64,000 bases of DNA from the NCBI RefSeq assembly GCF_044704955.1, contig NC_091997.1, forward strand, positions 66,092,001-66,156,000, written 5' to 3'. The notes beneath the pieces are model-generated. The model did no database searches. It saw only the letters and a list, made by a program, of their open reading frames with translations, and was not told the DNA's origin. A program made the translations under genes and the position numbers. Each line of letters begins with the position of its first letter. Position 1 is the first letter of the stretch. This DNA comes from Pristiophorus japonicus (Eukaryota). Shown piece after piece: positions 6,871 through 40,190 of the stretch.

Positions 6871-7022
6871 TAGTATTTGATTGTGACCTCAAAAATATTT
6901 CTCTGAAGAACTGAGGTCCAATGTTGGTGGCCTTTATTGTGAATTATTGTAGTCATGGTCAGTGCAGCTGAAAATAAAAGCCATTGAGTTGGAGAATGTA
7001 ATACAGGCCAAGAGTAAACACT

Positions 7023-7735
7023 GACAGACTGGGGTCCTAGAGTAATCACCGACAGACTGGGGTCCTTGAGTAATCACCGACAGACTGGGGTCCTAGAGTA
7101 ATCACTGACAGACTGGGGTCCTAGAGTAATCACTGACAGACTGGGGTGCTAGAGTAATCACCAACAGACTGGGGTCCTAGAGTAATCACCGACAGACCGG
7201 GGTCCTAAAGTAATCACTGACAGACTGGGGTGCTAGAGTAATCACCAACATACTGGGGTCCTAGAGTAATCACCGACAGACTGGGGTCCTAGAGTAATCA
7301 CCGACAGACTGGGGTCCTAGAGTAATCACTGAGACTGGGGTCAAAGAGTAATCACTGACAGACTGGGGTCCTAGAGTAATCACCAACAGACTGGGGTCCT
7401 AGAGTAATCACCGACAGACCGGGGTCCTAGAGTAATCACCGACAGACTGGGGTCCTAGAGTAATCACCGACAGACTGGGGTCCTAGAGTAATCACCGACA
7501 GACTGGGGTCCTAGAGTAATCACTGACAGACTGGGGTCCTAGAGTAATCACTGAGACTGGGGTCAAAGAGTAATCACTGACAGACTGGGGTCCTAGAGTG
7601 ATCACCGACAGACTGGGGTCCTAGAGTAATCACTGACAGACTGGGGTCCTAGAGTGATCACTGACAGACTGGGGTCCTAGAGTAATCACCGACAGACTGG
7701 GGTCCTAGAGTAATCACTGACAGACTGGGGTCAAA
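7023..7735. repeat. 28-bp minisatellite, ~25 copies (GACAGACTGGGGTCCTAGAGTAATCACY)
   Basis: Direct tandem repetition with period 28 (e.g. 7023, 7051). Confidence 0.95.
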
Positions 7736-10464: not shown

Positions 10465-10978
10465 AGGCTTGCGTTTGTTTATAGAGCACCTTTCACAGCC
10501 TCAGGATGACCCAAAGTGCTTTACAGCCAATGAAGTATTTTTGGAAGTGTAGTCACTGTTGTAATGTGGGAAACGCGGCAGACAAATTGCGCACAGCAAG
10601 CTCCCACAAACAGCAATGTGATAATGACCAGATAATCTATTTCTGTGATGTTGATTGAGGGATAAATATTGGTCCCAGGACACTGGGGAGAACTCCGCAG
10701 GATCCTTTACGCCCACCTGAGGGGGCAGACGGGCCTCGGTTTAACATCTCATCCGAAAGATGGTACCTCCGACAGTGCAGCACTCCCCCAGTACTGCCCC
10801 TCCGACAGTGCAGCGCTCCCTCAGCACTGCCCCTCCGACAGTGCAGCACTCCCTCAGTACTGCCCCTCCGACAGTGCGGCGCTCCCTCAGCACTGCCCCT
10901 CCGACAGTGCCGCCCTCCCTCAGCACTGCCCCTCTGATAGTGCCGCCCTCCCTCAGCACTGGCCCTCCGACAGTGCAA
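10465..10978 (-). mobile_element. Headless Deu-domain SINE whose 5' part is ~6 tandem 33-bp units (10788-10978)
   Basis: Reverse complement of SINE core and tail; tandem CCCTCCGACAGTGCRGCRCTCCCTCAGYACTGC. Confidence 0.85.
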
Positions 10979-11439
10979 TGCCCACATCCCATGAACGAAT
11001 TAAAAGATATATATGAATTAGGAGGAGTCGGCCATTCGGCCCCTCGAGCCTGCTCTGCCATTCAAGAAGATCATGGCTGATCTTCGACCTCAAATCCACT
11101 TTCCCGCCGGATCCCCATATCCCTCGATTCCAAAAATCTATCGATCTCAGTTTTGAATATATTCAACGATTCAGCATTCACAGCCCTCTGGGTGATGAAA
11201 TTCTTCCTCATCTCGGTCTTAAATGGCCGACCTCATATCCTGAGACTGTGACCCCTGGTTCTAGACTCCCCAGCCCGGGGGAAACATCTCTCTGTATCTA
11301 CCCTGTCAATCCCCCTCAGAATCTGGTATGTTTCTATAAGATCACCTCCAGAGAATATAGGCTCAGTCTACTCAATAAGTTTAATGAGGTGCTGATTTTA
11401 GTGGATTCTGAGCAGACGGATCTGTGGTTTAAAAGCTGC

Positions 11440-11870
11440 AGCAGCGGGAGATTGGGAGGCAGAGACCCGGGAGGTGGGGGTGGGGGAGAGGGAAGGGAGC
11501 TGGGAACAGGCATTGTAAAAGAGGCAGTATTGTGATATATTCCCCCCGGAGCTGCTGTTGCGGCTCTCTCCTCGCCTCCCCCCCGGGGCCAAGTTGTCTC
11601 TGTGTCCCCCAGGGTGACTCCGCTGGTTTGGGCCGCTCGGGCGGACAGGAGCCCGGGGTCGGTGCTGAGAGCCGCAGCTCGGGGCCGGGCGGGCCAGGGA
11701 GCGAGAACAGGAGTTAGACAGGAGGGGGAATTTTTTAAAAAAGTATTTGAAGTTCGACATTTAAAGTTTGAAAAGTTCCAAAAACTCCACTGACCTGCGT
11801 ACAACGCACCCGGAAGCCGGGAAGAGATTCTGCGAAGTGGCTCCGGAGCCGCCTGCTGGCCGCAGAGACA
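11440..11870 (-). promoter_or_regulatory. CpG-rich promoter with short non-coding first exon (~11795-11826), probably for CIB1
   Basis: Unique GC/CpG-rich segment; ETS-type CCGGAAG; minus strand reads CTCTTCCCGGCTTCCGGGTGCGTTGTACGCAG|GTCAGT (donor); the CIB1 ATG exon has an acceptor and needs an upstream exon. Confidence 0.6.
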
Positions 11871-12540
11871 CTGTCGGAGGGGCAGTACTGAGGGAGCGCC
11901 GCACTGTCGGAGGGGCAGTACTGAAGGAGCGCCGCACTGTCGGAGGGGCAGTACTGAGGGAGCGCCGCACTGTCGGAGGGGCAGTGCTGAGGGAGCGCCG
12001 CACTGTCAGAGGGGCAGTACTGAGGGAGCGCCGCACTGTCGGAGGGGCAGTACTGAGGGAGCGCCGCACTGTCGGAGGGGCAGTACTGAGGGAGCGCCGC
12101 ACTGTCGGAGGGGCAGTACTGAGGGAGCGCCGCACTGTCGGAGGGGCAGTACTGAGGGAGTGCCGCACTGTCGGAGGGGGCAGTACTGAGGGAGCGCCGC
12201 ACTGTCGGAGGGGCAGTACTGAGGGAGTGCCGCACTGTCGGAGGGGCATTGCTGAGGGAGTGCCGCACTGTCGGAGGGGGCAGTACTGAGGGAGCGCCGC
12301 ACTGTCGGAGGGGCAGTACTGGGGAGTGCCGCACTGTCGGAGGGGCATTGCTGAGGGAGTGCCACACTGTCAGAGGGGGCAGTACTGAGGGAGCACCGCA
12401 CTGTCGGAGGGTCAGTGCTGAGGGACGCCGCACTGTCGGAGGGGCAGTACTGAGGGAGCACCGCACTGTCGGAGGGGCAGTGCTGAGGGAGCACCGCACT
12501 GTCGGAGGGGCAGTGCTGAGGGAGTGCCGCACTGTCGGAG
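11868..12540 (+). repeat. ~20 copies of SINE-derived 33-bp unit (CTGTCGGAGGGGCAGTACTGAGGGAGCGCCGCA), continuing into the SINE body to ~13105
   Basis: Period 33 (11871, 11904); followed by Deu core, which is interrupted by an RTE-like fragment at ~12751-13000. Confidence 0.92.
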
Positions 12541-16089: not shown

Positions 16090-18890
16090 AAAAACTCAGA
16101 ATCACAGAAATTTACAGCACGGAAGGAGGCCATTTCGGCCCATTGTGTCTGCACTGGCCGACAAAGAGCTATCCAGCCTAATCCCACTTTCCAGCTCTTG
16201 GTCCATAGCCCTGCAGGTTACAGCACTTCAAGTGTAAATCCAAGTACTCTTAAAAATGTGGTGAGGGTTCTGTCTTTACCACCCTTTTAGGCAGTGAGTC
16301 CCAGACCCCCACCACCCTCTGGGAGAAAATATTTCTCCTCAAATCCCCTCTAAACCTTATAACAATTACTTTAAATCTAAGTCCCCTGGTTGTAGACCCC
16401 TCTGCTAAAGGAAATAGTTCAGTCCTGTCCACTCTATACAGGCCCCTCATAATTTTATACACCTCAATAAGATCTCCCCTCAGCCTCCTCTGTTCCAAAG
16501 AAAACAACCCCGGCCTATCCAATCTATCCTCATCGCTAAAATTCTCCAGTCCAAGCAACATAAGAACATAAAAATTAGGAACAGGAGTAGGCCATTCGGC
16601 CCCTCGAGCCTGCTCCGCCATTCAATGAGATCATGGCTGATCTTCGACCTCAACTCCACTTTCCTGCACTATCCTCATATCCCTTAATATCCAAAATCTA
16701 TCATAAGAAATAAAAGCAGGAGTAGGCCATTTGATCATGGCTGATCTAATCCTGGCCTAAACTCCACGTCCCTGCCTGCTCCCCATAACCCTTGACTCGC
16801 TTATTGTTCAAAAATCTGTCTATCTCCACTTTAAATATATTCAATGACCCAGCCTCCACAGCTCTCTGGGATAGAGAATCCCACAGATTTACAACCCTCT
16901 GAGAGAAGAAATTCCTCCTCATCTCCGTCTTAAATGGGTGGCCCCTTATTCTCAAACTATAGATACGTAGAAACATAGAAATTTACAACATGGAAGGAGA
17001 CCATTTCGGCCCATTGTGTCCGTGCCAGCCGACAAAGAGCCGCACAGCTCTTGGTCAGCAGCCCTGAAAGTTACATATAAACCTATGAACAATGAACAAT
17101 GGCAGAAAGGTAAAGAGCAGCCAGCCCAACCAATCCGCCCCACACAACTGTGACACCCCTTACACTAAAACATTCAACATTCCACCCCAACCGGAGCTAT
17201 GTCCCCTAGTTCTAGATTACCTTATGAGGGGAAACATCCTCTCTGCATCTACCCAGTCAAGTCCCCTCATAATCTAATACGATTCAATAAGATCCTCATT
17301 AATCTCCTCTGTACCCTCTCCAGTGCAATCACATCTTAGAAACATAGAAATTAGATGCAGGAACAGGCCATTCGGCCCGTCGAGCCTGCATCACCATTCA
17401 ATAAGATCATGGCTGATCATTTAACCTCAGTACCCCTTTCCTGCTTTCTCTCCATACCCCTTGATCCCTTTGGCCATAAGGCCCATATCTAACTCCCTTC
17501 TGAATATATCTAACGAACTGGCCTCAACTACTTTCTGTGGTAGAGAATTCCACAGGTTCACCACTCTCTGAGTGAAGAGGTTTCTCCTCATCTCGGTCCT
17601 AAATGGCTTACCCCTTATCCTTAGACTGTGACCCCGGGTTCTGGAACTCCCCAACAACATAGAAACATAGAAAATAGGTGCAGGAGTAGGCCATTCGGCC
17701 CTTCGAGCCTACACCGCCATTCAATGAGTTCATGGCTGAACATGCAACTTCAGTACCCCATTCCTGCTTTCTCGCCATACCCCTTGATCCCCCTAGTAGT
17801 AAGAACTACATCTAACTCCTTTTTGAATATATTTAGTGAATTGGCCTCAACAACTTTCTGTGGTAGAGAATTCCACAGGTTCACCACTCTCTGGATAAAG
17901 AAGTTTCTCCTCATCTCAGTCCTAAATGGCTTACCCCTTATCCTTAGACTGTGACCCCTGGTTCTGGACTTCCCCAACATTGGGAACATTCTTCCTGCAT
18001 CTAACCGTCAGAATTTTAAACGTTTCTATGAGGTCCCCTCTCATTCTTCTGAACTCCGGTGAATACAAGCCAAGGTGATCCAGTCTTTCTTGATATGTCA
18101 GTCCCGCCATCCCGGGAATCAGTCTGGTGAGCCTTCGCTGCACTCCCTCAATAGCAAGAATGTCCTTCCTCAAGTTAGGAGACCAAAACTGTACACAATA
18201 ATCCAGGTGTGGCCTCACCTAGGCCCTGTACAACTGTAGTAACACCTCCCTGCCCCTGTACTCAAATCCCCTCGCTATGAAGTCCAACATGCCATTTGCT
18301 TTCTTAACTGCCTGCTGTAACTGCATGCCAACCTTCAATGACTGATGTACCATGACACCCAGGTCTCGTTGCACCTCCCCTTTTCCTAATGTCACCATTC
18401 AGATAATATTCTGCCTTCGTGTTTTTGCCCCCAAAGTGGATAACCTCACATTTATCCACATTATACTGCATCTGCCATGCATATGCCCACTTACCTAACC
18501 TGTCCAAGTCACCCTGCAGTCTCTTAACGTCCTCCTCACAGCTCACAGCTTAGTGTCATCTGCAAACTTGGAGATATTACATTCAATTCCTTCATCTGAA
18601 TCATTGATGTATATTGTAAATAGCTGGGGTCCCAGCACTGAACCCTGCGGCACCCCACTGGTCACTGCCTGCCATTCTGAAAAAGACCCGTTTATTCCGA
18701 CCCTCTGCTTCCTGTCTGCCAACCAGTTCTCTATCCACGTCAGTACATTTCCCCCAATACCATGTGCTTTGATTTTGCATACTAATCTCTTGTGTGGGAC
18801 CTTGTCAAAAGCCTTTTGAAAGTCCAAATCCACTGGTTCTCTCTTGTCCACTCTATTAGTTACATCCTCAAAAAATTCTAGAAGCTCTTT
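16090..18890 (-). mobile_element. Cluster of nested CR1 3' fragments
   Basis: Repeated RGHSLRIRGKPFRTEMRRNFFTQRVVNLWNSLP peptides, (CTATGTTT)n tails, RT motifs [10 protein letters not shown] and KFADDTKL. Confidence 0.9.
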
Positions 18891-21800
18891 CATAATGCGC
18901 AACAAAAATATATTCCAGTGAAAAAGAAGGGCGGCAAGAAAAGAGATAACCAGCCGTGGATAACCAAGGAAATAAAGGAAAGTATCAAATCAAAGACCAA
19001 TGCGTATAAGGTGGCCAAGGTTAGTGGGAAACTAGAGGATTGGGAACATTTTAAGCAACAGCAAAGAATGACTAAAAAAGCAATAAAGGGAAGATAGATT
19101 ACGAAGGTAAACTTGCGCAAAACATAAAAACAGATAGTAAAAGCTTTTACAGATATATAAAACGGAAAAGAGTGACTAAAGTAAATGTTGGTCCCTTAGA
19201 AGATGAAAAGGGGGATTTAATAATGGGAAATGTGGAGATGGCTGAGACCTTAAACAATTATTTTGCTTCGGTCTTCACAGTGGAAGACACAAAAACCATG
19301 CCAAAAATTGCTGGTCATAGGAATGTGGGAAGAGAGGACCTTGAGATGATCACTATCACTAGGGAGGTAGTGCTGGACAGACTAATGGGACTGAAGGTAG
19401 ACAAGTCCCCTGGTCCTAATGAAATGCATCCCAGGGTATTAAAAGAGATGGCGGAAGTTATAGCAGATGCATTTGTTATAATCTACCAAAATTCTCTGGA
19501 CTCTGGGGAGGTACCAGCGGATTGGAGAGCAGCTAATGTAACGCCTCTGTTTAAAAAAGGGGGCACGCAAAAGGCAGGTAACTATAGGCCGGTTAGTTTA
19601 ACATCTGTAGTGGGGTAAATGCTTGAAACTATCATTAAGGAAGAAATAGCGGGACATCTGGATAGGAATAGTGCAATCAAGCAGATGCAGCATGGATTCA
19701 TGAAAGGGAAATCATGTTTAACTAACTTACTGGAATTCTTTGAGGATATAACGAGCATGGTGGATAGAGGTGTACCGATGGATGTGGTGTATTTAATTTC
19801 CAAAAGGCATTCGATAAGGTGCCACACAAAAGGTTACTGCAGAAGATAAAGGTACGCGGAGTCAGAGAAAATGTATTAGCATGGATAGAGAATTGGCTGG
19901 CGAACAGAAAGCAGAGAGTCGGGATAAATGGGTCCTTTTCCGGTTGGAAATCAGTGGTTAGTGGTGTGCCACAGGGATCAGTACTGGGACCACAACTGTT
20001 TACAATATACATAGATGACCTAGAAGAGGGGACAGAGTGTAGTGCAACAAAATTTGCAGATGACACTAAGATTAGTGGGAAAGCGGGTTGTGTAGAGGAC
20101 TCAGAGATGCTGCAAGGAGATTTGGATAGGTTAAGCGAATGGGCTAAGATTTGGCAGATGGAATACAATGTCGGAAAGTGTGAGGTCATCCACCTTGGGA
20201 AAAAAAACAGTAAAAGGGAATATTATTTGAATGGGGAGAAATTACAACATGCTGAGGTGCAGAGGGACCTGAGGGTCCTTGTGCATGAAACTCTTTTAGG
20301 AGTAAACAAAAAACATTAAACCGTGCCCCCCCGATCTGGGGGAAACACCAACATTTACAAGGCCCTTTTTTTTATTTTTGGGGGTTTTTTTGGGGCACAG
20401 AATCAAATTTTTTTCCAAGTGCCCCCTATAAAAGGGGAGGGGGACACTAAAAGCACCGGCAATTAAAACAAATTAACTTAAAAAACATAAAATCAAATTA
20501 AAATTTGGTTGCCAGGCGTGATGATGCACTCCAGTCCCTCCGGTGCCCACCTCTCGCGGAAGGCCGCGAGCGTACCGGTGGACACCGCGTGCTCCATCTC
20601 CAAGGACACCCTGGACCGGATGTAAGAGCGGAAGAGAGGCAGGCAGTCAGGTTGAACGACCCCCTCGACCGCCCGCTGCCTGGACCGGCTGATGGCACCC
20701 TTGGCCGTGCCCAGGAGCAGTCCTACGAGGAGGCCCTCGGACCTACCCGCTCCCCTCCGCACAGGGTGCCCAAAGATCAGGAGTGTGGGACTGAAGTGCA
20801 GCCAAAATTTCAGGAGCAGCCCCTTTAAATAACAGAACAGGAGCTGTCCTTGTGCATGAAACTCTTTTTGGAGTTTATCTGCAAAACAAAAACATTAATC
20901 GGTGCCACCCGACCTGGATGACACACCAGACATTTACAAGGCCCTCTTTTTTTGTTTTTTTGGGTTTTTTTTTTGTGTTTTTCTTTTTTTTTGGGCACTA
21001 AAATCACCTTTTTTCCCCAGTGCCCCCTATAAAAGGGAAGGTCCTTGTGCATGAAACTCTTTTTGGAGTTCACCTGCAAAACATAAAACATTAAACGGTG
21101 CCACCCGACCTGGGTGACACTCCAGACATTTACAAGGCCCTTTTTTTCCCCCCCTTTTTTTTTTGTTTTTTTTTTGTTTTTCTTTTTTTGTTTTTTTTTG
21201 GGCACTAAAATCACAATTTTCCCCAGTGCCCCCTATAAAAGGGAAGGTCCTTGTGCATGAAACTCTTTTTGGAGTTCACCTGCAAAACATGAAACATTAA
21301 ACGGTGCCACCCGACCTGGGTGACACTCCAGACATTTACAAGGCCCTTTTTTTTTTTCCCCCCCCTTTTTTTTTGTTTTTTTTTGTGTTTTTCTTTTTTT
21401 GTTTTTTTTTTTGGGCACTAAAATCACAATTTTCCCCAGTGCCCCCTATAAAAGGGAAGGGGGACACTAAAAGCACCGGCAATTAAAACAAATTAAACTT
21501 TAAAACGTAAAATCAAATTAAAATTTGGTTGCCGGGCGTGATGATGCACTCCAGTCCCTCCGGTGCCCACCTCTCGCGGAAGGCCGCGAGCGTACCGGTG
21601 GACACCGCGTGCTCCATCTCCAAGGACACCCTGGACCGGATGTAAGAGCGGAAGAGAGGCAGGCAGTCAGGTTGAACGACCGCCCGCTGCCTGGACCGGC
21701 TGATGGCACCCTTGGCCGTGCCCAGGAGCAGTCCTACGAGGAGGTCCTCGGACCTACCCGCTCCCCTCCGCACAGGGTGCCCAAAGATCAGGAGAGTGGG

Positions 21801-22742
21801 ACTGAAGTGCAGCCAGAATTTCAGGAGCAGCCCCTTCAAATAATGGAACAGGGGCTGCAACCTTGTGCATGAAACTCTTTTTGGAGTTTATCTGCAAAAC
21901 AAAAACATTAATCGGTGCCACCCGACCTGGATGACACACCAGACATTTACAAGGCCCTCTTTTTTTGTTTTTTTTGGGGGGTTTTTTGTGTTTTTCTTTT
22001 TTTTTGGGCACTGAAATCACCTTTTTTCCCCAGTGCCCCCTATAAAAGGGAAGGTCCTTGTGCATGAAACTCTTTTTGGAGTTCACCTGCAAAACATAAA
22101 ACATTAAACGGTGCCACCCGACCTGGGTGACACTCCAGACATTTACAAGGCCCTTTTTTTCCCCCCCTTTTTTTTTTGTGTTTTTCTTTTTTTGGTTTTT
22201 TTTTGGGCACTAAAATCACAATTTTCCCCAGTGCCCCCTATAAAAGGGAAGGTCCTTGTGCATGAAACTCTTTTTGGAGTTCACCTGCAAAACATAAAAC
22301 ATTAAACGGTGCCACCCGACCTGGGTGACACTCCAGACATTTACAAGGCCCTTTTTTTCCCCCCCTTTTTTTTTTGTGTTTTTCTTTTTTTTTTGTTTTT
22401 TTTTGGGCACTAAAATCACAATTTTTCCCCAGTGCCCCCTATAAAAGGGAAGGTCCTTGTGCATGAAACCCAAAAGGTTAGTTTGCAGGTGCAGCAGGTA
22501 ATCAGGAAGGCAAATGGAATGTTGGCCTTCATTGCGAAAGGGATGGAGTACAAAAGCAGGGAGGTGTTGCTGCAACTGTATAAGGTATTGGTAAGGCCGC
22601 ACCTGGAGTACTGCGTGCAGTTTTGGTCACCTTACTTAAGGAAGGATATACTAGCTTTGGAAGGGGTACAGAGACGATTCACTAGGCTGATTCGAGAAAT
22701 GAGGGGGTTACCTTATGATGATAGATTGGGTAGACTGGGTCT
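18891..22742 (+). mobile_element. CR1 ORF2 segment interrupted at RDLRVLVHET by the Tx1-like array; lacks its own 3' end
   Basis: ORFs 19172-19618, 19819-20319 ([16 protein letters not shown]) and 22432-22746 are colinear CR1 RT; the sequence resumes exactly at 22470 (CCAAAAGG). Confidence 0.92.
20292..22454 (-). mobile_element. Tandem array of seven 5'-truncated Tx1-clade non-LTR retrotransposon 3' ends
   Basis: Two long units encode an ORF2 C-terminus (LLKFWLHFSPTLLIFGHPV..LLLGTAKGAI..FRSYIRSRVSLE..FRERWAP) resembling Tx1-clade ORF2; five short ~180-bp units; all separated by the duplicated target CCTTGTGCATGAAAC. Confidence 0.85.
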
Positions 22743-22995
22743 TTAATTCCCTGTTTTCTCTCTCTCTCTCTCTCCTTTTTTAAAAAGTGGTGTTACATTA
22801 GCTTCCCTCCAGACGGTAGGAACTGATCCAGAGTCAATAGAATGTTGGAAAATGATCACTAATGCATCCACTATTTCTAGGGCCACTTCCTTAAGTACTC
22901 TGGGATGCAGCCTATCAGGCCGTGGGGATTTATCGGCCTTCAATCCCATCAATTTCCCTAACACAATTTCCTGACTAATAAGGATTTCATTCAGT
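22743..22995 (-). mobile_element. CR1 ORF2 fragment, probably the upstream part of the minus-strand element ending at 18890
   Basis: LKADKSPRPDRLHPRVLKE..WREANVTPLFKKG. Confidence 0.8.
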
Positions 22996-24052: not shown

Positions 24053-25159
24053 TCAATCCTCTAGAAACTCGGCAATTTCCAATCGAAGTTGGGAGAGTTC
24101 CTCTTCGGGGAGCAAGTATTTGCGGATTATTTCTAGGGCTTTCTCCTCCGTCAGGCTGCTGTAGTCCTCGGGGTTGTTGACGGGCAGGTGCCCCGCCAGC
24201 TCGCACAGGGCGACGTTGAACGCCGCCGGCTCCTTGACGCCGAAGACGGACCTGCGGGGCCAGAGGATGAGGCGGACCCCGTCCCGGGAGCCCGTGTCCT
24301 CCTGCCGGCCGCCCAGCGGGCAGCCCCGGGTCAGGAAGAGGTTGTGGGCCAGCGAGCGGTCCAGCAAGAAGTCGGCGAGGCGGTGGAGGGCGGCGGCGGT
24401 CTGCGGGATGTCGGTGCCGTCGGTGTAGAGGACCAGCCCGCGGGTGGGGTGGCCGGACATGAGGTGGACTGGGTGGCCGGCCCGGCCGCCCCCTCGGTCC
24501 GGTGTCAGGGGCTCAGTAGCGGCCCACTCCACCCTCAGCCGGTGCGGCAGGTAGTAGCCGTGGAGGTGCAGGTGGTTGACCGAGGCCAGGGCCCCCAGGC
24601 TGTTGAAGCCCACCCGGAAGCCGGGGTCCGAGCTCAGGAACATCAGCTCCAGCCCCCGCAGCACCGAGGCCCGGCTCAGCACCTGCGGCAGGCCCCGGGC
24701 CGGCTCGGGCAGCAGCAGGACATGGCCGAACTCCAGCGGGCTGACATTGATCACCAGCAGGGCCTCCTCCTCCTGCCCCGGCCTCAGCGCGAACAGTATC
24801 TCCCGGGCCCCGATCCGCCCGAAGTGGAAGCCCCGCGGGTCGAAGGGCTGCCGCAGTCCGAGGATGGGCTGCGGCCGGCGGCGCTCGGTGGCCCGCTGCG
24901 GGTTGAGCTGAGCCAGCAGACGGCTCGGGCCCGGCAGCACCCGGCTGGGAGGCCGGGCCTGCGGCAGCGAGTAGCGGAAGCAGTCCCGCCGCTCCTCCCA
25001 GGCCGAGCGCAGCGCCCGGTCCAGGCGGGAGCCGGGCCCCGGGCCGCCCCACCGCACCCCGCTCCGGTGGAAGTCCGCCTCCGAGTAGGCGAAGACCCCG
25101 GGCTGGGACCGGGACCGCTGCCTCTCCCGCTCCGCCTCCCCGCCACTGGGCGCCGCCAT
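24053..25159 (-). CDS. GDPGP1: GDP-D-glucose phosphorylase 1 (HIT superfamily), single coding exon, 368 aa
   Basis: Intact GC-rich ORF; motifs AQLNPQR, INVSPLEFGHVLL, VGFNSLGALASVNHLHLHGY, FNVALCELAGHLP; AAGATGGCG start context at 25159; synteny with CIB1 and TTLL13. Confidence 0.95.
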   Translation of the reverse strand: MAAPSGGEAERERQRSRSQPGVFAYSEADFHRSGVRWGGPGPGSRLDRALRSAWEERRDCFRYSLPQARPPSRVLPGPSRLLAQLNPQRATERRRPQPILGLRQPFDPRGFHFGRIGAREILFALRPGQEEEALLVINVSPLEFGHVLLLPEPARGLPQVLSRASVLRGLELMFLSSDPGFRVGFNSLGALASVNHLHLHGYYLPHRLRVEWAATEPLTPDRGGGRAGHPVHLMSGHPTRGLVLYTDGTDIPQTAAALHRLADFLLDRSLAHNLFLTRGCPLGGRQEDTGSRDGVRLILWPRRSVFGVKEPAAFNVALCELAGHLPVNNPEDYSSLTEEKALEIIRKYLLPEEELSQLRLEIAEFLED

Positions 25160-34004: not shown

Positions 34005-34790
34005 ACCCGTATCTCTTGGCCACTCCCTCACACTGACCAGTGTATCTCCCGATCACTCCCTCACTCTGACCGGTGTATCTCCTGGTCACTCCCTCACACT
34101 GACCGGTGTATCTCCCGATCACTCCCTCACACTGACCGGTGTATCTCCCGATCACTCCCTCACACTGACCGGTGTATCTCTCGGTCACTCCCTCACACTG
34201 ACCGGTGTATCTCCCGGTCACTCCCTCACACTGAACGGTGTATCTCCCAATCACTCCCTCACACTGACCGGTGTATCTCTCGGTCACTCCCTCACACTGA
34301 CCGGTGTATCTCCCGATCACTCCCTCACACTGACCGGTGTATCTCCCGATCACTCCCTCACACTGACCGGTGTATCTCTCGGTCACTCCCTCACACTGAC
34401 CGGTGTATCTCTCGGTCACTCCCTCACACTGACCGGTGTATCTCCCGATCACTCCCTCACACTGACCGGTGTATCTCTCGGCCACTCCCTCACATTGACC
34501 GGTGTATCTCCCGATCACTCCCTCACACTGACCGGTGTATCTCCTGGTCACTCCCTCACTCTGACTGGTGTATCTCCTGGTCACTCCCTCACTCTAACCG
34601 GTGTATCTCTCGGTCACTCCCTCACACTGACCGGTGTATCTCCCGATCACTCCCTCACTCTGACCAGTGTATCTCTCGGTCACTCTCTCACACTGACCGG
34701 TGTATCTTTCGGTCACTCCCTCACACTGACCGGTGTATCTCTCGGCCACTCGCTCACACTGACCGGTGTATCTCTTGATCACTCCCTCAC
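34005..34790. repeat. 33-bp minisatellite, ~24 copies (CCGGTGTATCTCYCGRTCACTCCCTCACACTGA)
   Basis: Tandem repetition; produces spurious 11-aa repeat ORFs. Confidence 0.95.
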
Positions 34791-35589: not shown

Positions 35590-36032
35590 CTGGCAGGGTC
35601 AGCAGCGAAGACCACTGGCAGCGTCAGCGCCAGAGGCCACTGACAGGATCAGCAGCGAAGGTCACTGGCAGGGTCAGTGCCAGAGGCCACTGGCAGGGTC
35701 AGTGCCAGAGGCCACTATCAGGGTCAGCAGTGAAGGTCACTGGCAGCGTCAGTGCCAGAGGCCACTGGCAGGGTCAGCAGTGAAGGTCACTGGCAGTGTC
35801 AGTGCCAGAGGCCACTGGCAGGGTCAGCAGCGAAGGAACTGGCAGGGTCAGCAGTGAAGGTCACTGGCAGGGTCAGTGCCAGAGGCCACTGGCAGGGTCA
35901 GCAGCGAAGGAACTGGCAGGGTCAGCAGTGAAGGTCACTGGCAGGGTCAGTGCCAGAGGCCACTGGCAGGGTCAGCAGCGAAGGAACTGGCAGGGTCAGT
36001 AGTGAAGGTCACTGGCAGGGTCAGTGCCAGAG
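35590..36032. repeat. 24/25-bp minisatellite with a 74-bp higher-order repeat
   Basis: Units CTGGCAGGGTCAG + (TGCCAGAGGCCA, CAGCGAAGGAA or CAGTGAAGGTCA) cycling in the 3' half. Confidence 0.9.
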
Positions 36033-36320
36033 GTCCAATATTCAGGCCCAATGTCAGCATCTAAAAAGAGGAATTATTAAATCTTTTAGGTGGCTATCTA
36101 ACAGATCTGCTGCATATTCCCATAGTTCTTTTGTTTTTAATTTATGTTTCCAGATTTTTTTTTTACCTCAGAATGAGTTATCGTGACTGCTCTACACTGA
36201 ATACTAGCTTAACTGTTGAGCCATCGAGTGGCAATGCTGAACCCAGGCCAGTCATTTCCCACAGGGAAAACTGTAACTTCTGCTTACTTTATTGAGATCT
36301 CAGCCTCTTCTTTCTTGCAG

Positions 36321-39869: not shown

Positions 39870-40190
39870 AACACACTGGGCAGTTCACTGAGCTGGGTCA
39901 ATAACACACTGAGCAGTTCATTGAGCCGGGTCTGTAACACACTGGGCAGTTCATTGAGCCGGGTCTGTAACACACTGGGCAGTTCATTGAGCCGGGTCTG
40001 TAACACACTGGGCAGTTCATTGAGCCGGGTCTGTAACACACTGGGCAGTTCATTGAGCCGGGTCTGTAACACACTGGGCACTTCATTGAGCCGGGTCTGT
40101 AACACACTGGGCAGTTCATTGAGCCGGGTCTGTAACACACTGGGCAGTTCATTGAGCCGGGTCTGTAACACACTGGGCAGTTCATTGAAC
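39870..40190. repeat. 33-bp minisatellite, ~10 copies (ACACACTGGGCAGTTCATTGAGCCGGGTCTGTA)
   Basis: Near-perfect tandem repetition. Confidence 0.95.

Follow-up and report, generated by a model that had tools for sequence, protein, structure and literature searches.

A LINE of the Tx1 clade in the shark Pristiophorus japonicus almost certainly targets one site in ORF2 of a CR1 LINE, where it lies antisense, and where its copies are stacked at that site neighbouring units commonly share a 5' truncation point and carry 3' parts from different donors. Targeting had been proposed in an earlier note on one array in the window (the whole stretch of 64,000 nucleotides analysed, positions 66,092,001 to 66,156,000 of contig NC_091997.1), whereas the inheritance of junctions, absent from that note, is the more unusual feature. 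The 5' completion and joining of LINE cDNA is an open question, most copies ending truncated, and in this genome natural replicates exist by the thousand, each with a homologous template at the nick and an outcome that can be read from the sequence. The window array consists of the following parts.

18870..20275, plus strand: host CR1-type LINE, ORF2 (RT region, RVT_1 match), 5'-truncated, two frameshifts ahead of the target
20276..20289, plus strand: 14-bp target copy 1, adjoining CR1; the array's 3' end in the element's reading direction
20290..20846, minus strand: unit A, 5'-truncated Tx1, ORF2 C-terminus and 3' UTR, most diverged variant
20847..20860, plus strand: 14-bp target copy 2
20861..21041, minus strand: unit B, 3' UTR alone, second variant, shared junction J
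21042..21055, plus strand: 14-bp target copy 3
21056..21247, minus strand: unit C, 3' UTR alone, third (common young) variant, junction J
21248..21261, plus strand: 14-bp target copy 4
21262..21860, minus strand: unit D, ORF2 C-terminus and 3' UTR, third variant
21861..21873, plus strand: target copy 5, 13 bp
21874..22054, minus strand: unit E, junction J, tail identical to that of unit B
22055..22068, plus strand: 14-bp target copy 6
22069..22252, minus strand: unit F, junction J, third variant
22253..22266, plus strand: 14-bp target copy 7
22267..22453, minus strand: unit G, junction J, third variant
22454..22467, plus strand: 14-bp target copy 8, then CR1
22468..22745, plus strand: host CR1 ORF2 resuming in frame (TQKVSLQV...VRPHLEYCVQFWSP...), then interrupted by other sequence

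A recount of the 15-mer described in the earlier note gave exactly the eight copies listed there (starts 20277, 20848, 21043, 21249, 21861, 22056, 22254 and 22455), against a chance expectation, with 2 mismatches allowed, of 0.22 on average (0 of 100 shuffles reach 9). The seven inserts between them (556, 180, 191, 597, 180, 183 and 186 bp) were again seen to be antisense, with one common terminal base, without poly(A) and in three 3' variants, and once they are taken out the CR1 frame ...QRDLRVLVHETQKVSLQVQQ... is regained. The duplication of the target is real, but not its supposed length of 15 bp: it is the 14-mer TCCTTGTGCATGAA, 14 bp long in 7 of 8 copies and 13 bp at 21861, and the last two bases of the 15-mer are, in copies 1-7, the element's own terminus (...AAAAGAGT). 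Copy 8 fits the 15-mer because the host CR1 here carries a minor GAAAC variant, which a hand count found in 16 of the first 100 empty CR1 sites listed. Ordinary 5' joints read, on the element strand, as host ...GGGA|TTCATGCACAAGGA| with the element starting directly after, and that of unit D lies at a microhomology of 9-10 nt between the element's own ORF2 and the target, a joint used at other loci too. Microhomology as the rule for 5' joints was rejected, with none in 31 of 59 rows, at least 1 nt in 12 and 16 unreadable against a single reference copy.

Concerning the host, its RT region matches RVT_1, and its VRPHLEYCVQFW motif and 3' tail of short tandem repeats are what we take to be CR1 marks; the label CR1-type is given on the RT and these motifs. 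That the insertions inactivated the host LINE, as had been suggested, finds no support, since this CR1 copy lacks its 5' part anyway and carries two frameshifts before the target.

The element was characterized through an own-genome search (5.9 Gb) with unit D, which gave 883 candidates, of which 40 were scored and 30 loci fetched. At least the first part of the target follows the element end in 28 of these 30 loci. Full-length copies of about 7.18 kb were obtained, with an ORF1 of 700 aa and an ORF2 of 1,302 aa that holds an APE-type endonuclease (Exo_endo_phos, 12-233), an RT (RVT_1, 518-767) and a weak zf-RVT; a CCHC knuckle in ORF1 is weak and below the cut-off (zf-CCHC, E 0.0025). The 3' terminus is fixed, ...AAAAGAGT, without poly(A). 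Tx1-clade identity, as proposed in the earlier note, is borne out by these domains, by 49% identity to Xenopus TX1 ORF2 over 100% of the length and by a quick RT tree (43 rows, no L1 row, CR1 as outgroup) in which the element is sister to a stingray sequence in a clade (SH-aLRT 99) with Xenopus TX1 and turtle sequences. It falls outside the Keno (U2) and Kibi/Koshi (microsatellite) groups, its target being CR1 and not U2 snRNA or (TC)n, and U2-associated and (TC)n-flanked relatives sit in other branches. Both ORFs are open in 14 of 25 full-length units read, so the family would likely be young or active; no RNA dataset among those listed holds the element. Relatives in metagenomes are only 26-46% identical. 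Sequencing runs of three other organisms contain the CR1 and close Tx1 pieces (one contig of 668 nt has 9 changed letters), and no contig among those listed for them bridges the Tx1-CR1 junction.

Genome-wide, a flank-free pattern finds 16,386 element ends, and exact joints of element end and target number 15,664, against 0 for the control pattern. Of 90 consecutive ends that both lists cover, the exact target follows 66, and at another 15 there is a variant target or an array joint at the site; 8 lie off target and 1 was not retrieved. This puts 81 of 90 on target, or 77 of 86 without 4 segmental copies. Kojima regards a family as target-specific when one flank type occurs in more than 20% of copies (PMC4494074, in the text accessible); our element is so by this definition, one flank type standing far above 20% with many different 5' truncations. 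Matched 34-base patterns count 5,790 filled and 28,700 empty sites (about 17% filled), which makes it a LINE-on-LINE parasite at scale, present at roughly one of every six intact sites that a single CR1 subfamily offers. The target is thus, as had been supposed, a coding motif of CR1 ORF2. A second CR1 subfamily reads VMVHQS at the site and has one insertion, 9 nt off (L133). The CR1 tail (TTCTTATG-type) lies about 680 nt beyond the target site in 41 loci, so we infer that many truncated CR1 copies retain the site. Hitch-hiking in amplified CR1 was considered and rejected: where the same junctions occur at several loci of contig C1 they belong to 99%-identical 3-kb segmental copies, which were dropped or noted. 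Groups of such segments at the start of this contig (L056-L070), each group with one Tx1-in-CR1 junction, are recent segmental duplications.

That the 15-mer follows nearly every copy, and that the RT seems to jump between RNAs, might suggest that it is carried in the element RNA by read-through or template jumping; the window array, read from assembled sequence, might instead be an assembly artefact. Both are highly improbable. Locus-specific variants of the target site duplication (TSD) run through every joint of an array, including the CR1 side (L120, L121/122), and of the 8 off-target ends 7 are followed by TTC and 5 have TSDs of their own, 12-15 bp long; the target core is therefore host DNA, regenerated as a TSD as the earlier note held, and the case in which the 15-mer is part of the element, which that note had named as its refutation, falls away. 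The 15-mer is, moreover, present in the 28,700 empty CR1 sites, and as to the assembly, the units differ from one another and similar arrays occur at many loci. One off-target copy (L003, G000:C3852:242811) has a 3' flank that resembles, by eye, a C2H2 zinc-finger gene.

To characterize the arrays, 38 regions were taken in order from the list of internal joints, skipping six entries already seen or belonging to full-length clusters; pairs were counted if the downstream unit was truncated and at least 150 nt long, and two repeated blocks and two pairs with the upstream end outside the region were dropped. By hand count, a common 5' truncation is found in 25 of 38 neighbouring pairs and 17 of 23 arrays, nearly all from contig C1 and with pairs within an array not independent; the remaining 13 pairs comprise 6 longer, 6 shorter and 1 with another RNA. 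Between arrays, truncation points coincide in 10 of 1,711 pairs (<1%, hand count). Truncation hot spots set by RNA structure or microhomology, with independent units, would account for the few points that do recur between arrays and for the microhomology joint of unit D, which other loci also use, but they leave unexplained why J is found nowhere else in the genome, and a foreign 5S head cannot derive from a hot spot in the Tx1 RNA. The uniqueness of J and the arrays headed by 5S refute this reading, which we consider scarcely credible.

The neighbours that share a junction are chimeras, with a 5' part resembling the resident copy and a 3' part from another donor. They differ by 1.7% in coding sequence, against a median of 1.9% between loci, and in a comparison of 40 pairs that includes arrays chosen earlier by spacing, and that separates private mutations from donor-type differences, 201 of 544 non-CpG differences (37%) are alleles seen at at least 2 other loci, where 3.3% would be expected for new mutations. 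Relative to expectation, donor-type differences amount to 0.08 at 0-100 nt from the junction, 0.27 at 100-250 and 0.6-0.8 at 250-2,000. A foreign head, serving as a natural marker, bears this out: 32 joints start with captured 5S rRNA, and in 5S-headed arrays the head and an array-specific breakpoint are kept in 12 of 12 units (5 of 5 arrays) and the tails differ in 7 of 7 pairs. Past the switch point, private mutations are more numerous in the downstream unit than in the upstream one (134 vs 91, p=0.005; by pairs 16 vs 6, p=0.05). The neighbour on the 3' side is thus older on average, which supports statistically that array growth takes place chiefly at the 5' duplicate and now and then at internal duplicates. 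True block duplications were also found (L162/163, L195), as were near-identical neighbours among full-length copies. At another locus (L080) a 117-bp duplication spans CR1 flank, target copy and the resident's first 62 nt, which recalls rearrangements at R1 insertion sites.

Turning to the window, junction J occurs in 5 copies in the 5.9 Gb genome, all inside the window and on two tail variants. Over 300 nt, units B and E agree at 98% of positions, and their tails are identical; the haplotype of this tail is found in only 71 of about 16,000 copies genome-wide, 12 of these 71 in 5 tandem clusters; it is thus rare and not private to the locus, as had been considered. Since J is unique to this locus and the B/E tail is rare, part of the array would have been copied locally: unit E is likely to be a local copy of unit B, judging from these similarities, and unit F perhaps came from C by local copying when D joined through microhomology. 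The tail of F and G is the commonest haplotype (13 of 137), so that by tail their histories are indistinguishable. From the polarity of the array, A is likely the oldest and G the newest unit. We infer that J arose once and that units A, B, C and D each needed a donor RNA of its own, four or more in total. Of the earlier view of an array built by repeated insertion, re-insertion at the duplicated target therefore stands, and seven ordinary insertions do not, given the uniqueness of J and the tail shared by B and E. A history of one or two insertions, simply multiplied in place by tandem duplication and then diverging neutrally, would explain J, the B/E likeness and with them part of the array. 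This simpler history is nevertheless very improbable, for the three tail variants differ by 6-20 changes and two of them are present elsewhere in the genome, units A and D have different joints, and as a general account it is refuted by the alleles that neighbours share with other loci (37% against 3.3%), the distance gradient from the junction and the 5S-headed arrays.

The explanation we favor, and hold as a whole to be reasonably probable, combines site-specific Tx1 insertion, growth at the duplicate and cDNA completed on resident DNA. The endonuclease would nick the CR1 coding strand at CATGAA/TCCC, as suggested by Tx1L biochemistry, the 3'-OH at the nick would prime reverse transcription from the element's fixed 3' end, and a second nick 14 nt on would leave an overhang, mostly joined bluntly. 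New copies would enter at the target duplicate that lies 5' of a resident; the cDNA would then leave its RNA, anneal to this homologous copy, whether in cis or on the sister chromatid, and be extended along it as far as the second nick. As that nick coincides with the first base of the resident, extension would run off at the resident's junction and the end would join the overhang there, so that the 5' end is inherited, and entry further down the array would copy whole units with their TSDs. Completion coupled to integration is, on the pattern of junctions and alleles, the probable course.

The same chimeric product would arise if each copy inserted with its own 5' end and later recombined with the resident, either on the sister or on a homologue without the new insertion, so that gene conversion or unequal crossover replaced the 5' part and multiplied units; static sequence does not date the copying relative to insertion. 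Local recombination does act, as the tandem clusters of the B/E tail and the block duplications show, and certainly contributes; the scatter of switch points over hundreds to thousands of bases, and the more frequent sharing of junctions by residents longer than 1 kb, also suit it. As the general cause it is unlikely and ranks second, because in most pairs each insertion would call for a recombination event of its own, even with units of 180-350 bp and diverged tails (the window, L161, L169, L183 and the C5 array). It would also have to keep a single junction across arrays with three distinct tails (L044, L117, L118 and two 5S arrays), and none of 5 5S arrays was found half-converted.

If completion is instead coupled to integration, insertions can become full-length and subfamilies can recombine by this means, with relevance to site-specific retrotransposon tools. 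Intact heads number 4,178 after another copy and 448 after CR1, and 55 of 100 copies upstream of a head-intact copy are full-length against 6 of 100 first units adjoining CR1, a contrast that is based on exact patterns and confounded by age and array amplification. Of 17 adjacent full-length pairs, 10 have the first 250 nt in common, and in 5 of these the shared stretch reaches at least 2 kb; the other 7 are unlike from the very beginning. Inheritance of the 5' end is thus not obligatory, as the 13 differing pairs above also show. We lean slightly towards a wider view in which Tx1 escapes 5' truncation by homing beside its own copies: truncated residents would clone their junction and full-length residents yield full-length recombinants, CR1 would give about 35,000 interchangeable docking sites near its 3' end, and the RT would also string pre-tRNA and 5S RNAs there, a nursery for SINE heads. 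Such arrays inflate insertion counts. In one example (G000:C1:9708001-9778000, L276-L282) a single CR1 holds seven full-length and two truncated copies over about 60 kb, six of them with both ORFs open.

The targeting of other transposons by Tx1 families is already known, with Tx1D, Mariner-N4, LTR elements and Harbinger as published targets in the accessible parts of PMC4494074, PMC6719617 and PMC1950540; the CR1 target adds to this habit, and junction inheritance is the new part. No CR1-targeting Tx1 was found in the literature searched, with Repbase, Dfam and most subscription papers, which could list the family, outside its scope, nor were inherited 5' truncation points, again with most subscription papers outside. 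Background on CR1-group elements of sharks is given in PMC3747384 and PMC13343379, as far as their accessible text goes. Closest is Tx1L of Xenopus laevis, of the same clade, with 49% ORF2 identity, an APE-type endonuclease and another transposon as target (PMC4494074, PMC6719617, both as accessible); in vitro the Tx1L endonuclease nicks hardly anything but its own target (PMC1950540, accessible part). Tx1L, however, targets the DNA transposon Tx1D and not a coding motif of a CR1 LINE, and the shark element has thousands of filled sites and arrays; the accessible text on Tx1L does not mention junction inheritance. The crocodilian families Tx1-Mar, Tx1-8_Crp/Tx1-4_AMi and Tx1-9_AMi likewise prefer Mariner-N4, LTR retrotransposons or Harbinger, antisense at one region, and crocodilian SINEU has small-RNA heads and tandem copies (Kojima 2015, PMC4494074, accessible text). 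In the same text no CR1 target is described for these families, which are old (85-91% to consensus), whereas in the shark family open ORFs are numerous and the site is defined to a single base.

Arrays of Drosophila R1 are alike in being formed by an APE-type site-specific LINE with a 14-bp TSD, a bare TSD between copies and entry at the 5' TSD (Stage and Eickbush 2009, PMC2718515, accessible part); here too copies are parted by a bare TSD and growth is at the 5' TSD, although the element is not of the R1 clade. R1 differs in clade and in its rDNA target, and the accessible part of that paper reports no shared 5' truncation points or chimeric neighbours. In templated insertions of human L1 the cDNA comes off its RNA and anneals to DNA close by, in an SDSA-like step, but these are rare (22 among about 3,600 insertions, with templates <250 bp; bioRxiv 10.1101/2024.08.27.596794, in the text accessible), whereas in the shark element about two thirds of tandem events are concerned, with tracts up to kilobases. 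Resident templating would be frequent here because targeting sets a homologous copy at the nick.

Small RNAs are also found at the CR1 site. At 17 of 20 dispersed loci (L136-L155, e.g. G000:C1:11274843 and G000:C7:183440096) a piece of Tx1 tail, between 9 and several hundred nt long, is fused to RNA sequences joined end to end: 5S rRNA, pre-tRNA that keeps its leader and trailer, and other tRNAs. This looks like template jumping of the RT; the tRNA in these inserts is presumably tRNA-Asp. A companion SINE family with fixed structure was rejected, since every tail is different and the tRNA-headed inserts are therefore single chimeras. Three further loci (L151, L154, L142) show tRNA joined to the CR1 3' tail (two loci) and, off target, a tRNA-headed snRNA-like concatemer whose parts we take to be tRNA-U2-like-U1-like. 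Long tandem runs at G000:C23:15.7-22.6 Mb, with about 1,955-bp spacing, match the tRNA pattern and are probably the source tRNA gene arrays.

A final observation concerns the rest of the window. An open frame of 239 codons on the minus strand (24062-24778), with the array about 1.6 kb past its end, carries an HLHLH motif, has no Pfam match and is presumably GDP-D-glucose phosphorylase (GDPGP1). Minisatellites with periods of 28, 33 and 25/74 bp lie at 7011-7732, 10766-12540, 34009-34790, 35590-36033 and 39870-40188.
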